Assembly (NCBI GenBank): GCA_004297205.1 | Contig: SCUL01000002.1 | Location: 77,156-141,155 of the forward strand | Origin: Patescibacteria group bacterium | GTDB lineage: Bacteria; Patescibacteriota; Patescibacteriia; 2-12-FULL-57-11 | Direction of reading: 5' to 3' | DNA length: 64,000 bases | Part shown: piece by piece, positions 41,255-63,852 of the stretch | Layout: each line of letters opens with the position of its first letter | Position numbering within the stretch: position 1 is the first letter of the stretch | The notes under the pieces: model-generated | The model's database searches: none | Told to the model about the DNA's origin: nothing | The model's input: only the letters and a program-made list of their open reading frames with translations | Program-made: the position numbers and the translations under genes

Positions 41255-41578
41255 TCAGGCCAATCCCGTGTGCGTCTCGAGCCGCTCGATGCGTGATTCG
41301 TGCCTCTTCAGCCACTCTGTGGCGGCAAACCATTCCTCGTCAAGAAGCTTGAATTGACCAACGAGAAAATCAAGGGCGTTCATCATTTTCCTCTGATCCT
41401 CCTTGGTGAAGACATTCTCCTCAAGCCATTTCAATCGATCTTCATGGCCGTCAGCCAAATCATACAAACGACCCACCTGCCGACGAATTTCGGAGGTATC
41501 TTTTCGGATTTCACGAACGTCGACCTGAAGTTCGCTCACGTCGGTCCTGATTGTCTTTATCGTCTCCTCCTGATTCAT
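41255..41578 (-). CDS. small coiled-coil protein, paralog A (ends [12 protein letters not shown])
   Basis: 107 aa, [13 protein letters not shown]... Charged heptad pattern. Paralogous to 52400..52630 at both the protein and the nucleotide level. Confidence 0.5.
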
Positions 41579-41654
41579 ACACAACCATGATACGAACGAA
41601 CGCCGCCTTGCACCAGGCAGCGTCCGTGTCAAGTACCGCCCCCACCTCCCCCGA

Positions 41655-41675
41655 CCCCTCCTTGTCAAGGAGGGG
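41655..41675. repeat. perfect palindrome CCCCTCCTTG-t-CAAGGAGGGG (intergenic)
   Basis: Same family as the palindrome inside uvrC at 63332-63350 (C-run TTG n CAA G-run). Confidence 0.6.
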
Positions 41676-41759
41676 TGAGAATCCTGCTTGCAGATAAAAA
41701 AGGGACCGCGCAGCGTCAGCTGGCGGCCTTTGCCGACGAAACGGCCGATGTGACGCGGA

Positions 41760-42029
41760 TCAGGGCCGATCAGCGGAGAGCGCTCGTGAGACCCATGAAA
41801 AGCTGAGCCGGAGCACGACGATGAGAGGCAGGCAGACGAGCACCGCCGGCCACAGCAGGGCCACCACCCCCACAGCGACCACCCGCGTCGAACCTTCGCA
41901 CTCCCAACCGATCTGTTCGGGTGCGAATTCCTCCCAGAACCACGAGCCGATGGCACCCCCGACCGCCAAGTAAACGATCAACACCAATGGCCCGAAGTAT
42001 GCGAGTACCCCGATGATTGCGTAGTCCAT
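41760..42029 (-). CDS. small membrane protein (89 aa, 2-3 TM)
   Basis: Start MDYAIIGVLAYFG... with a GGAGG RBS. The track ORF is 5' extended. Confidence 0.45.
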   Translation of the reverse strand: MDYAIIGVLAYFGPLVLIVYLAVGGAIGSWFWEEFAPEQIGWECEGSTRVVAVGVVALLWPAVLVCLPLIVVLRLSFSWVSRALSADRP

Positions 42030-42092
42030 TCGATAAACCTCCTCTGATCGGCAGCGTATGCAAATCAATCCGGCGCGTCAAACAGGCATCCC

Positions 42093-62487: not shown

Positions 62488-63852
62488 TCAGGTACGTTTT
62501 CCCCGCAGCTTCCTGTGGTAGCCGATGGCAAAGCGATGGGCCTCGTCGCGCAGCCGCTGGAGGATGACCTTGTACTGCTCCACGACGCGGCCGAGCTCGA
62601 GCGCGTCCTTGGGATAGATCAGACGATCCTGCTTGCGATCGAAGCCCTTGGCGATACCGACGACCGGAATCGTCAGTTTTTTCTCGCGGAGGATCTCTTT
62701 GGCGATGTTCACCTGCCCCCAACCGCCGTCGATCATGATTAAATCTGGTAATGCCCATCCATCCTGTAGGGGCGCACCGATGTGTGCGCCCGGGCCGACA
62801 CGTCGGTCGGCCCCTACGGCTGTTGCCCGGGCGAAGCGGCGGCGCAGCACTTCGGCCAGCATGGCGTAGTCGTTCGCGCCTTTGACGGTTTTGATCTTGA
62901 ACTTGCGGTACTCCGACTTCTTCGGCTCGCCGTCCTCAAAGACGACCATCGAGCCGACGGCCGAGGTGCCGGAGATGTTGGAAATGTCGTAGCCCTCGAT
63001 GCGACCGAAGATGTTGATGGGCAGATCGTGCTGGCGCGGATGGCCGAACATGCCGCCTTCGTCGCGGGACAGCACGGCGATGTCATTGATGTGGCGCAGC
63101 GCGTAGAGCTGGCGCTTGGCCTTCTCGGCGTCCTCGTAGCGCTCTTCGGCCGCGGCCTTTTTCATGTCACGTTCCAATGCGCGCTCCACCCGTTCCGTCT
63201 TGCCTTCGAAAAACAGGATGAGCCGGCGGATGATCTTGGCGTAGTCGCGCTTCGAGATGGCGCCGACGCACACCCCAGGGCAGGCGCCGATGTGGTAGTC
63301 GAAGCACGGCCGGCCGCGGACCCCTCTTGGTCCCCCCTTGACAAGGGGGGAAGTTGGCGGGGGTTCGCACGTACTCCACGGAATGAACTTGCGCACCAGC
63401 TTCAGCGCCGCGCGCAACGCCGCCGGCTGCAGGTACGGACCGAACACCGCCTTGTACCGCCGTTTCCCTTCCCGCTCCAACTCATGTCCGCGTACGAACA
63501 GCGGCTTGGGATACGGATCGTTGCTGATTGCCAAATACAGGAAGGACTTGTCGTCCTTCTGCATGATGTTGTACTTCGGCAAGTGCTTCTTGATGAGATT
63601 GGCCTCGAGGATCAACGCCTCCAGGACGTTGCGCGTCGGTTGCACCTCGATCCGGTCGACTGCAGCAATCAGGTCGGCCACCTGGTAGCGGCTGATCTGT
63701 TCCTGGATGCGCCAATACGAAGTGACCCGCCGCTTGAGCGAGGTGGCTTTGCCGACGTAGATGACCCGCCCGCCGGCGTCCCTCATCAGGTAGACGCCGG
63801 GCTTTTCCGGCAGGCCGCCGGCCGGGAGTTGTACGCGATCGGGAATTGACAT
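62488..63852 (-). CDS. uvrC: excinuclease ABC subunit C, short form (GIY-YIG, UVR and RNase H-like domains; no C-terminal HhH2) with an in-frame palindromic insertion
   Basis: GIY-YIG (GVYLMRDAGGRVIYVGKA), Cys-rich region, UVR (ERYEDAEKAKRQLYAL), and RNase H-like domain (GYDISNISGTSAVGSMVVFEDGEPKKSEYRKFKIK). 454 aa. Confidence 0.85.
   Translation of the reverse strand: MSIPDRVQLPAGGLPEKPGVYLMRDAGGRVIYVGKATSLKRRVTSYWRIQEQISRYQVADLIAAVDRIEVQPTRNVLEALILEANLIKKHLPKYNIMQKDDKSFLYLAISNDPYPKPLFVRGHELEREGKRRYKAVFGPYLQPAALRAALKLVRKFIPWSTCEPPPTSPLVKGGPRGVRGRPCFDYHIGACPGVCVGAISKRDYAKIIRRLILFFEGKTERVERALERDMKKAAAEERYEDAEKAKRQLYALRHINDIAVLSRDEGGMFGHPRQHDLPINIFGRIEGYDISNISGTSAVGSMVVFEDGEPKKSEYRKFKIKTVKGANDYAMLAEVLRRRFARATAVGADRRVGPGAHIGAPLQDGWALPDLIMIDGGWGQVNIAKEILREKKLTIPVVGIAKGFDRKQDRLIYPKDALELGRVVEQYKVILQRLRDEAHRFAIGYHRKLRGKRT
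63332..63350. repeat. perfect palindrome CCCCCCTTG-a-CAAGGGGGG inside the uvrC Cys-rich region (encodes part of an 11-aa insertion ...PLVKGGPRGVRG...)
   Basis: Same family as the intergenic palindrome at 41655-41675. Confidence 0.6.

Follow-up and report, generated by a model that had tools for sequence, protein, structure and literature searches.

The uvrC gene, an essential repair gene of this Patescibacteria genome, carries a perfect palindrome inside its coding sequence, and a palindrome of similar design lies between two genes elsewhere in the window (the whole stretch of 64,000 nucleotides analysed here). A preliminary description had seen in the two a distinct hairpin family colonising this genome, including its open reading frames (ORFs). 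The question raised by the locus is what kind of element these palindromes belong to, and how one of them came to be read as part of a repair protein.

Two copies of a three-block repeat

Both palindromes are present exactly as the preliminary description had placed them, within uvrC at 63332-63350 and upstream of the small coiled-coil gene at 41655-41675. The palindrome, however, is only two-thirds of a 32-base, three-block repeat: on the minus strand, 3 nt past each palindrome, lies a third, G-rich block that had been overlooked, and the unit is therefore 32 nt long (63320-63351 and 41644-41675; Table 1). The two sites do belong to one repeat family, as proposed, but the family is not a plain and distinct hairpin family, given the third, mirrored block and the apparent membership in a known class of triplex motifs.

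Read on the minus strand from 63351 to 63320, the uvrC copy is TCCCCCCT-TGTCA-AGGGGGGA-CCA-AGAGGGGT, and its 19-nt palindrome lengthens to a 10-bp stem, TCCCCCCTTGACAAGGGGGGA (63331-63351). The intergenic copy, read from 41675 to 41644 on the minus strand, is CCCCTCCT-TGACA-AGGAGGGG-TCG-GGGGAGGT; its palindrome, CCCCTCCTTGTCAAGGAGGGG, lengthens to an 11-bp stem (41654-41676). This second copy lies in a 180-nt gap, with a 102-aa membrane-protein ORF (41760-42068) on one side and the coiled-coil ORF on the other; 64 nt separate the end of the motif from the ATG of the latter. The hairpins have predicted folding energies of -9.9 kcal/mol (uvrC copy, in which the third block stays unpaired) and -10.5 kcal/mol (intergenic copy).

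Table 1. Positions of the repeat copies, their blocks and the associated genes in the window.
Feature	Positions	Strand	Source or remark
uvrC, 454 aa, GIY-YIG and UvrC RNase H domains	62488..63852	-	
Complete three-block motif in uvrC	63320..63351	-	class II triplex-motif finder, codon alignment
Pyrimidine block Y, uvrC copy, TCCCCCCT	63344..63351	-	read from sequence, finder
Purine block R, uvrC copy, AGGGGGGA	63331..63338	-	Watson-Crick partner of Y
Third (reverse-Hoogsteen-type) block, uvrC copy, AGAGGGGT	63320..63327	-	
19-nt perfect palindrome CCCCCCTTGACAAGGGGGG (Y, loop and R only)	63332..63350	.	read from sequence
Complete three-block motif, intergenic	41644..41675	-	finder: perfect at stem 6 and stem 7
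Pyrimidine block Y, intergenic copy, CCCCTCCT	41668..41675	-	
Purine block R, intergenic copy, AGGAGGGG	41655..41662	-	
Third block, intergenic copy, GGGGAGGT, exact mirror of R	41644..41651	-	
Small coiled-coil gene, downstream of intergenic copy, ATG at 41580	41255..41580	-	

A pyrimidine / purine / reverse-Hoogsteen layout defines the class II purine-motif intrastrand triplex motifs, called BoxC, PIT or TM_ECO in E. coli and in cyanobacteria; the definition and the E. coli motif pattern are given by Holder 2015 (PMC4666352). In both window copies, a homopyrimidine block is followed by its Watson-Crick homopurine block (TCCCCCCT/AGGGGGGA and CCCCTCCT/AGGAGGGG), and an antiparallel third block lies 3' of the purine block. 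The rule for the third block is a stem of 6-15 nt, at most one mismatch if the stem exceeds 7, and G*G.C, A*A.T or T*A.T triads, either A or T being allowed opposite an A.T pair in the purine motif (PMC4666352). All eight triads of the intergenic copy are allowed ones (six G*G.C, one A*A.T and one T*A.T). In the uvrC copy the third block mirrors the purine block at 7/8 positions, with one non-canonical triad (8 triads and 1 mismatch in the class II triplex-motif finder), and in the sister genome described below it is a perfect AGGGGGGT, with 8/8 triads. The loops measure 5 nt and 3 nt in both copies with the flanking T.A pair counted in the stem, the first becoming 7 nt if this pair is left out; the limits for the class are 1-6 nt (ITxF) or 0-10 nt (Hoyne 2000). 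An unbiased finder of the Y-loop-R-loop-mirror(R) arrangement picked out these two sites of the window and no others, and none in any of 100 Markov shuffles, so that the motif is commoner here than in scrambled sequence.

In their sequence, both window sites show the block architecture that marks intrastrand triplex motifs of class II (purine motif), at 7-8 triads; the E. coli motif with demonstrated folding has 9, and forms a stable triplex in vitro by CD and NMR, while triplex went undetected by in vivo DMS footprinting in E. coli (PMC4666352).

An in-frame insertion in uvrC

The palindrome amounts to exactly seven codons of uvrC (TCC CCC CTT GTC AAG GGG GGA, that is, SPLVKGG), and the complete three-block motif codes for S-P-L-V-K-G-G-P-R-G-V in the codon alignment. 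The alignment of orthologs bore out an insertion that keeps the frame, is specific to this lineage and lies between the first Cys and the RPC motif; its size was corrected from roughly 11 extra residues to a net insertion of 9 codons, relative to the nearest orthologs without it. The inserted residues (approximately 168-178) lie between Cys164 and Cys183 of the Cys-rich module. AlphaFold2 predicted coil for residues 157-183 of UvrC, with a mean pLDDT of ~50 for residues 171-180, and the insertion would thus occupy a low-confidence loop.

The uvrC element is not an assembly artefact, because an independent Logan assembly of this organism (L127) also contains it, as do two assemblies of the sister genome (L001 and L002). 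Among the orthologs compared, the insertion occurred only in the window and in P0002, from this 88%-identical sister genome; it was absent from six orthologs closer than 73%, and P0003-P0007 and the orthologs with a shorter loop were without it. The preliminary description had asked whether the extra residues might be shared by orthologs without a palindromic coding sequence, or whether further copies might be lacking genome-wide. Neither turned out to be the case: P0002, the sole ortholog sharing the residues, has the identical palindrome (21/21 nt, at 84% overall identity), and more copies were found, for instance in the sister genome.

Presence and absence among relatives and distribution in other lineages

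Close relatives differ in which copies they carry: L129 has no counterpart of the intergenic copy at the orthologous position, and the sister genome has a copy in uvrB where the UvrB of the source genome (P0243) has none. Within 21 kb of the sister genome we identified five copies, two of them intergenic and one each in uvrB, in uvrC and at the 3' end of a DUF559 gene. The idea that such repeats colonise ORFs is borne out by the three copies in genes; that they colonise the source genome is a weaker claim, at two copies in 64 kb. The uvrB copy varies between the 98%-identical strains L001 and L146, which differ by a 9-nt extension and compensating frameshifts, and local variability between close strains is thus raised at this one locus. 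A 33-nt stretch is common to the uvrC copy of the window and the uvrB copy of L146. Neither a target-site duplication nor a clean insertion junction was discernible at the uvrC or the intergenic site, whose flanks are too diverged to define one, and we therefore infer insertion from parsimony. That the uvrC copy arose de novo by template switching is implausible in view of the near-identical 32-mers in uvrB, uvrC and intergenic DNA.

The element was found in at least 15 phyla. In distant Patescibacteria (L147, L148) it lies in frame in loops of UvrC and UvrB. All six sequence-verified copies within ORFs of Patescibacteria encode S-P-L-x-K-G-G. Five lie in uvrB or uvrC; the sixth, a frame-shifted C-terminal tail, was excluded from that count. 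UvrB and UvrC are enzymes that handle distorted DNA. In metagenomes, the element interrupts Pfam domains of NifS-like, HypF, RimO/MiaB-like, xanthine-dehydrogenase-family and histidine-kinase genes, and a version of the pattern with 24 fixed bases was also matched, the matches listed giving a lower bound. The genome scan revealed the exact palindrome with the third run in Nostoc, Microcoleus, Tolypothrix, Scytonema and others. Among the matches listed, metagenome copies are read in all frames and in both orientations, which rules out a constraint on frame or orientation as a general rule.

We found no protein family linked to the motif in an all-against-all BLAST of the ORFs of 119 loci, the largest cluster (9 loci) being generic. 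IMG/VR contributed only 16 stretches, and there is therefore no sign of phages as main carriers. No Rfam family matched the window, or the motif at 18 loci; beside the copies of L072, Rfam reported just a group II intron and CRISPR-DR7 repeats. GC skew was flat across the window and carries no information on strand or replication.

Covariation of the third block and alternative explanations

Both sites probably represent a dispersed, G/C-rich repeat of ~32 nt with three blocks and the architecture of a class II intrastrand triplex motif. The evidence that bears most directly on this reading comes from the third block in other genomes. Among the matches listed, a third G-run lay within 12 nt of the palindrome at 99 of 127 palindrome-matching genome sites (78%), against 1.3% at control positions, and 28/127 sites had no recognisable third run. 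In the same listed matches, the third run was uninterrupted in 70/78 copies with all-C stems and interrupted by A or T in all 37 copies with T-containing stems, and of the 45 asymmetric stems, 28 had a perfectly mirrored third block and none a perfect direct repeat. Five stem variants each have their own matching, mirrored third block. The third block therefore covaries, as a mirror, across many variants; part of this covariation could be the trace of a few old subfamilies rather than of structural selection.

The alternative that fares best, although we consider it unlikely, is a plain REP-like hairpin or cruciform family whose palindrome alone has a role, such as that of a stem-loop that binds protein or stabilises RNA, the G-run being incidental. 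The perfect palindromes of 10-11 bp and their stable predicted hairpins agree with it, as do the sites listed without a third run and some Phycisphaerales copies whose motif caps a longer palindrome, with GTAGCG...CGCTAC as its outer arms. A palindrome acting alone, however, leaves the excess of third runs over control positions unexplained and fails to predict the mirror covariation, the third block being neither a Watson-Crick nor a direct repeat; moreover, neither window copy has a GTAG/CGTC head, and no neighbour gene recurs.

It is distinctly less probable that the element is a switch between a hairpin and a G-quadruplex, the two G-runs folding into the latter once freed from the C-run hairpin. 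Among the matches listed in the genome scan, many all-G copies have the form G7-N2-3-G7 and so agree formally with G3-N-G3-N-G3-N-G3; for TM_ECO, too, a quadruplex of its G-rich part is noted as conceivable in principle (PMC4666352). Nevertheless, the 18 imino signals in the NMR spectrum of the E. coli motif indicated a triplex rather than a quadruplex (PMC4666352), and the window copies do not contain the four G3+ tracts with loops of 1-7 nt of a canonical quadruplex, there being two such tracts, G6 and G4, in the uvrC copy and three in the intergenic one. Nor would a quadruplex predict that the third run is interrupted at the mirrored position, by either A or T.

Two further explanations are very improbable, and to the same degree. 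According to one, selection acts on the peptide: SPLxKGGxxGG would be a flexible, Gly/Pro-rich linker of UvrC and UvrB, and the palindromic DNA a by-product of its codons. The same peptide does appear in the same frame in the Cys loop of UvrC, in a second UvrC loop and in a UvrB loop, in several lineages, and PL.[KR]GG occurs 9 times in 240 UvrB and UvrC sequences and 0 times in 120 SecA, with 0.57 expected across all 360 proteins. The nucleotide element, however, also lies in intergenic DNA, at 41644-41675 and many other sites, and the listed metagenome copies respect neither frame nor orientation; the palindrome is conserved to the last nucleotide in the sister genome, where synonymous drift would be expected, and the insertion falls in a region of low-confidence predicted coil. 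According to the other, the hairpin acts in RNA, as a terminator or attenuator, as a stem that sequesters a Shine-Dalgarno sequence (CCUCCUU with AAGGAGG) or as a translation pause site. AAGGAGG and GGAGGT in the intergenic copy, and TTGACA in its minus-strand loop, would speak for such a role. Against an intrinsic terminator, no T-run follows either copy, and a consensus scan of 41500-41800 revealed neither terminator nor promoter; against a Shine-Dalgarno stem, there is no start codon at the proper distance, and most copies among the matches listed are all-G and unlike a Shine-Dalgarno sequence. In addition, PIT elements have no promoter or terminator activity in E. coli (PMC4666352), a purine-motif third strand does not form in RNA (literature cited in PMC4666352), and no Rfam family was matched.

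Chance likeness between two GC-rich palindromes of a 63% GC genome, conceivable given the ~31 perfect hairpins of the window whose stems reach 8 bp or more, is refuted by the empty shuffles, by two occurrences of the core CCTTGNCAAGG against 0.10 expected, by the 19-mer with up to 3 mismatches at only the two window sites against 0.03 expected, by the five further copies in 21 kb of the sister genome and by the matches to the 24-fixed-base pattern.

Likenesses of the loop were also considered and rejected: an anticodon-loop mimic (UU-GNC-AA), since the loop base is free in oriented copies (C 44, G 40, A 21, T 10) and Patescibacteria copies carry other loops; a sigma-70 -35 box (TTGACA), since a -10 partner is absent; and a CueR/MerR operator, the literature match for CCTTGCCAAGG coming from an unrelated context.

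A putative mechanism and its significance

On one strand, the order of the three-block repeat is a C-rich pyrimidine block, its Watson-Crick complement and a G-rich mirror of the latter. As to its triplex folding and mode of spread, we infer the following. When the DNA becomes single-stranded, during replication, repair or transcription, the hairpin would form and the third block could lie in its major groove, antiparallel to the purine arm, via G*G.C, A*A.T and T*A.T triads. The element may be a selfish or structure-prone repeat that is copied into new sites independently of a transposase, the likely routes being replication- or repair-associated copying, or gene conversion between copies; at the DNA level it would act as a local indel hotspot. 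In genes, the survivors would be those copies that keep the frame, are free of stops and fall in permissive loops. If only such tolerable copies survive, SPLVKGGPRGV in UvrC is most likely a tolerated passenger and not a functional module.

A broader claim, namely that a structure-defined, triplex-capable element of 32-45 nt is a recently active, transposase-free insertional agent common to 15 or more bacterial phyla, the Patescibacteria with their reduced genomes among them, and is repeatedly inserted in frame in permissive loops, notably of UvrB and UvrC, is possible, though we hold it with considerable doubt. If true, the element would rank with the smallest mobile DNAs yet described, and would quite generally supply bacterial proteins with Gly/Pro-rich insertions in their loops.

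For the window itself, the consequence is modest. More generally, the repeat would explain, at the level of DNA, where Gly/Pro-rich peptides such as SPLxKGGxxGG or PPLxxGG, hitherto unexplained insertions in conserved bacterial proteins, come from; its intergenic copies could also be mistaken for short ORFs. Natural test material for triplex formation in cells and for the spread of repeats is provided by sites that are filled in one close relative and empty in another, and by the uvrB site, hypervariable between 98%-identical strains.

Comparison with known repeat systems

REP/REPIN sequences are, like the repeat described here, short, GC-rich, dispersed hairpins that sometimes occur as inverted pairs. 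They have a GTAG or CGTC head, depend on a RAYT (Y1 transposase) gene, are extragenic and lack a mirrored third block, whereas the window copies are flanked by CAACT/CCGCG and TTCTCA/GGGGC, with no such tetranucleotide.

The small dispersed repeats (SDRs) of Nostoc (21-27 nt), which Elhai and co-workers are said to have described in 2008, are reportedly very small, proposed to be mobile, sometimes nested and sometimes located in genes. They are described as hairpins and not as triplex blocks, and by this description they differ from the window repeat.

Rickettsia palindromic elements (RPEs) and intragenic MITEs are inserted in frame where the protein fold tolerates them, in genes that are unrelated and often essential (review PMC10969869). 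The window repeat resembles RPEs in its in-frame insertion in unrelated genes at permissive sites. In contrast, RPEs are ~150 bp long, encode a conserved peptide module, are found in one genus and have no triplex architecture, while the window repeat is ~32 nt long and spread across phyla; the 100-200 bp, terminal inverted repeats and target-site duplication of MITEs and RPEs have no counterpart in it (~32 nt, none discernible).

The closest likeness is with BoxC/PIT/TM_ECO (Hoyne et al. 2000; PMC4666352). The window repeat shares with them the class II block order, the short second loop, the mirrored G-rich block and the A or T opposite A.T; both are G/C-rich, with conserved stems and variable loops, both are dispersed, sometimes in inverted pairs, with no transposase nearby, and both are gained or lost among close strains. 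Holder 2015 (PMC4666352) likewise reports the motif as locally unstable, abundant in cyanobacteria and without an associated transposase. They differ in several respects. The stems of the window repeat are of 7-8 nt, against 9 in TM_ECO; neither window copy fits the TM_ECO pattern, 5'-CCCTCNCCC N3-6 GGGNGAGGG N3 GGGNGAGGG-3'; and the first loop, unlike that of TM_ECO, has the form TT-NNN-AA and so lengthens the hairpin. In E. coli MG1655, TM_ECO is 'always intergenic', whereas the window repeat occurs in Patescibacteria, with one copy inside a gene, coding and in frame in uvrC. The published survey of class II motifs covers the same class and gives counts rather than the window consensus, with coding insertions unreported.

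The kind of element is thus already known, while its in-frame insertion in coding sequence and its presence in Patescibacteria look new. To BoxC/PIT/TM our results add motifs inside genes, in frame and at recurrent permissive loops, as well as near-identical sequences in Patescibacteria and many other phyla; together, this recurrence in genes and the near-identity of copies across phyla argue for active copying rather than passive relics.

Three-block repeats in the window

Read directly from the sequence, the two palindromes that the preliminary description had placed in uvrC and in an intergenic gap are both present: CCCCCCTTGACAAGGGGGG at 63332-63350, with a perfect 10-bp stem reaching 63331-63351, and CCCCTCCTTGTCAAGGAGGGG at 41655-41675, with an 11-bp stem reaching 41654-41676. 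Their common core, CCTTGNCAAGG, occurs twice in the 64-kb window (G+C 63%), against 0.10 occurrences expected. On the minus strand, an extra G-rich block, overlooked in that description, lies 3 nt past each palindrome. At both copies this third block mirrors the purine arm, being neither a direct nor an inverted copy of it.

We searched the window with a finder blind to these sequences. It seeks a pyrimidine block and its exact complement with a loop between them and then, past a second loop, a third block that forms no triads other than G*G.C, A*A.T and T*A.T when set antiparallel on the purine arm. Over 64 kb it returned the uvrC and intergenic loci and nothing else, the intergenic copy with a perfect triad fit and the uvrC copy with one mismatch in eight; 100 Markov shuffles of the window gave no matches, and the frequency of this architecture is thus not random. 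DNA folding predicted 9-10-bp hairpins (-9.9 kcal/mol for the uvrC copy, -10.5 kcal/mol for the intergenic one), with the third block left unpaired.

Features of the window and copies of the element in other genomes and metagenomes
Feature	Position	Strand	Description
uvrC ORF	62488-63852	minus	454 aa; GIY-YIG and UvrC RNase H domains; holds first palindrome
uvrC copy	63351->63320	minus	TCCCCCCT-TGTCA-AGGGGGGA-CCA-AGAGGGGT
Intergenic copy	41675->41644	minus	CCCCTCCT-TGACA-AGGAGGGG-TCG-GGGGAGGT
Sister genome (L001), copy 1			Intergenic
Sister genome, copy 2			C-terminal tail IPSLSRRGRGGRPAP* of DUF559 gene
Sister genome, copy 3			uvrB, 10-residue in-frame insertion ASPLAKGGPEGGV; missing from L004
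Sister genome, copy 4			The uvrC copy
Sister genome, copy 5			Directly past uvrC
L147	UvrC Cys loop		TCCCCCC-TTATCAA-GGGGGGA-ATAG-AGGGGGGT
L148	UvrC second variable loop		TCCCCCC-TTTCCAA-GGGGGGA-TCAG-AGGGGGGT
Class-V aminotransferase (NifS-like), L167 and L250			Aminotran_5 split at profile position 292
HypF, L253			Interrupted by element
RimO/MiaB-like enzyme, L263			Two copies
Xanthine-dehydrogenase-family protein			Two copies, linker
Histidine kinase			Interrupted by element

The uvrC copy

The uvrC ORF matches an annotated excinuclease subunit C of a Patescibacteria bacterium at 100%. In an alignment of the window UvrC with 28 homologs, the segment S-P-L-V-K-G-G-P-R-G-V was common only to the window and P0002 (88% identity), the homolog from the sister genome; P0003-P0007 (73-88% identity) lack it and read DDPPEVSG-RTRPC or similar, and the two cysteines are spaced by ~7 residues in most other Patescibacteria UvrC proteins. 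A codon alignment of the seven closest homologs bears out the lineage-specific in-frame insertion of the preliminary description, but not its size of ~11 residues: the net length difference from P0003-P0007 is nine codons. The only homolog sharing the extra residues also carries the palindrome in its DNA: the 21 nt are identical in P0002, with whole genes 84% nucleotide-identical (probability ~0.03 under uniform divergence), and the P0002 third block is a perfect AGGGGGGT.

The AlphaFold2 model of the window UvrC has a mean pLDDT of 80. Residues 157-183 are predicted coil, and mean pLDDT falls to ~50 over residues 171-180 and below 50 at 174-177; the insertion therefore sits in a loop of variable length that separates the first two Cys of the Cys-rich module. 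Filled and empty sites occur among relatives, and parsimony favours an insertion here rather than a loss in the relatives. The effect of the element on the window itself is probably neutral.

Several other features of these proteins were noted. UvrC is short in this clade (~415-470 aa in P0001-P0120); in the window UvrC, Pfam identified no domains other than GIY-YIG and RNase H-like, and the precomputed Pfam lists of its homologs held no helix-hairpin-helix family. In P0003-P0006, Asp takes the place of the initial Cys of the Cys-rich module. A second lineage-specific insertion, VGADRRVGPGAHIGAP (62770-62813, aa ~346-361), missing in P0004-P0007, coincides with two adjoining, mutually similar 22-nt hairpins, GGGCGCACcgatgtGTGCGCCC and GGGCCGACacgtcgGTCGGCCC; residues 346-363 have pLDDT <50. 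The pattern of these hairpins has no match elsewhere in the window (2 matches vs 1.35 expected). Different odd segments occur in other Patescibacteria UvrC proteins, for example at the start of P0017 (MKKNSRHCERSKAIQLNRGLLRQPTAVGFLAMT) and in the Cys loop of P0020 (ARPEAEAISRSLRSAREDK), and resemble translated copies of a further repeat family.

The intergenic copy

A relative with 84% identical SecA (L129) has the same two small genes between hpf and secA. Conserved with the window are a GC-rich inverted repeat and T-run that follow the upstream gene and a TTGACA...TATCAT block just ahead of the ATG of the coiled-coil gene; between these stretches, the ~45 motif-bearing nt of the window correspond to 11 unrelated bases. 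The sister genome lacks the entire two-gene block (L128). By this comparison the intergenic copy is likewise a presence/absence difference among relatives. A consensus scan called neither promoter nor terminator at the motif.

Upstream of the coiled-coil gene, TTGACA...GGCGGCGTTCGTTCGTATCATGG(N6)ATG is conserved (window 41581-41640, L129 4570-4630). TATCAT, 8 nt ahead of the ATG, would be compatible with a transcript that is leaderless or nearly so; no promoter was called before this gene because TTGACA is 34 nt off.

Copies in close strains

The sister genome (GCA_964355835.1) carries five copies within 21 kb, and L004, a more distant relative, none in 21 kb; the sister's uvrB insertion is missing from the source genome's own UvrB (P0243). 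The motif is a real repeat family within this lineage. At the same uvrB site, a further strain (L146, UvrB 98% identical to the sister's) has a different version (L146 4276-4330 vs L001 5295-5340), with a 9-nt 5' extension, a changed first loop, and two 1-nt deletions with a compensating 2-nt insertion. This copy is hypervariable, and its differences point to rapid local change; the 33-nt stretch CCCCGCCAACTTCCCCCCTTGTCAAGGGGGGAC, common to the L146 uvrB copy and the window uvrC copy, suggests exchange between copies.

Coding copies in other genomes

The peptide pattern PL.[KR]GG occurred 9 times in 360 Patescibacteria proteins of three families (UvrC 5, UvrB 4, SecA 0), vs 0.57 in residue shuffles, and its matches concentrate at three loops. 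With three families sampled, and uvrB and uvrC adjoining in the sister genome, the UvrB/UvrC bias may be one of sampling. In two distant Patescibacteria (L147 and L148), the DNA confirmed a complete three-block element in frame; the L148 uvrB loop holds two more motifs. Searching metagenomes with a pattern of 24 fixed bases yielded at least 120 stretches, with a chance expectation far below 1. Among the matches listed, 47 of 131 sites fell within ORFs that run 200 aa or more from stop to stop, with every frame and either orientation represented, and Pfam identified five of these ORFs as genuine genes interrupted by the element. Copies thus survive in frame in coil-predicted loops or interrupting Pfam domain matches. 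Our literature search found no paper mentioning these peptides or coding triplex motifs.

The split in L167 and L250 is an ~80-aa insertion of nested triplex motifs of two types: BoxC-type GEGWGEG units, read as SPGEGWGEG and SPLGEGWGEG, and the type described here, read as SPLAKGGQRGV. In L244, L253 and L263 the motif is part of a longer conserved unit, which in translation reads ..(T)RYRIQD(T/S)GYNPPLSPLSKGGIKGGY..., putatively near the N-terminus of the L244 ORF; its upstream part resembles tandem heptamers, so it may be a larger composite repeat.

Distribution across phyla and mirror covariation

Scanning a collection with one genome per GTDB species for CCCYCCTTGNCAAGGRGGG gave at least 119 stretches and at least 133 sites. 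Hosts among the matches listed include Cyanobacteria, Planctomycetota, Nitrospirota, Bacteroidota, Desulfobacterota, Acidobacteriota, Armatimonadota, Verrucomicrobiota, Burkholderiales, SAR324 and others. Among these matches, a third G-run lay no more than 12 nt away, on one side or on both, at 99 of 127 well-flanked sites (1.3% at control positions). It was uninterrupted with 70 of 78 all-C stems and interrupted by A or T with all 37 T-containing stems; for asymmetric stems it was a perfect mirror of the purine arm in 28 of 45 and a perfect direct repeat in none. Other stem variants at the same loci each came with the corresponding mirrored block: GGGGAGG with GGTGGGG, GGGGAGGG with GGGTGGGG, AGAGGGG with GGGGAGA, and GGGAGGG with GGGCGGG. 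Mirror symmetry cannot come from Watson-Crick pairing. It can come from an antiparallel third strand of the purine motif, which tolerates A or T facing an A.T pair.

In an Isosphaeraceae MAG (L072 4796-5077), three tandem 106-bp units each carry the motif in a spacer-like segment between degenerate CRISPR-DR7 repeats at a CRISPR array end, 3 kb from a group II intron. The motif is rare overall in IMG/VR (16 stretches), with ~six palindrome copies on one viral or proviral contig (L133/L134, IMGVR_UViG_3300044996_000692, 23.6 kb).

Interpretation

By analogy with E. coli biophysics, the single strand would fold into a hairpin plus third strand. The distribution suggests that the element is copied into new sites without a dedicated adjacent gene, and that selection may weed out coding copies that break the frame, carry stops or sit in places that are not permissive. 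A REP-like family of hairpins alone would leave the third block and its mirror covariation unexplained. The G-runs could instead form a G-quadruplex; however, neither window copy has four G3 tracts, and the E. coli motif is a triplex by NMR. Selection for a peptide linker conflicts with the same DNA being also intergenic and read in every frame elsewhere. A regulatory RNA hairpin fits poorly: there is neither a T-run nor, at Shine-Dalgarno distance, a start codon, tests in E. coli came out negative, and Rfam over the whole 64-kb window gave no family at gathering score, tRNAs included. Chance resemblance is ruled out by the shuffles and the additional copies. The preliminary reading of a hairpin family colonising ORFs was right that a repeat family enters ORFs, but it overlooked the third block, by which the element is defined, and the connection to an established class. 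Triplex-type repeats in frame within conserved genes across many phyla are worth pursuing.

Comparison with known elements

The class II intrastrand triplex motif, as defined by Holder et al. 2015 (PMC4666352), has a pyrimidine block followed by a purine block and, on the 3' side, a reverse-Hoogsteen block. Its E. coli example, CCCTCNCCC N3-6 GGGNGAGGG N3 GGGNGAGGG, was traced to BoxC, from the 1990s, and the PIT elements of Hoyne et al. 2000; MG1655 has 23 copies, 'always intergenic'. CD and NMR showed a very stable triplex for the single strand (Tm 70-82 degrees C), in vivo DMS footprinting did not detect the triplex, and no promoter, terminator or transposase association was found for the motif. 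It is tied to raised local variability and reaches very high numbers in cyanobacteria (all PMC4666352). The window copies have the class II architecture but depart from the E. coli pattern in their shorter stems, different sequence and TT-NNN-AA first loop; the kind of element is thus an already described class, of which the window element is a new variant. The apparent filter on coding copies, by reading frame, stops and site, resembles that of the Rickettsia palindromic elements.
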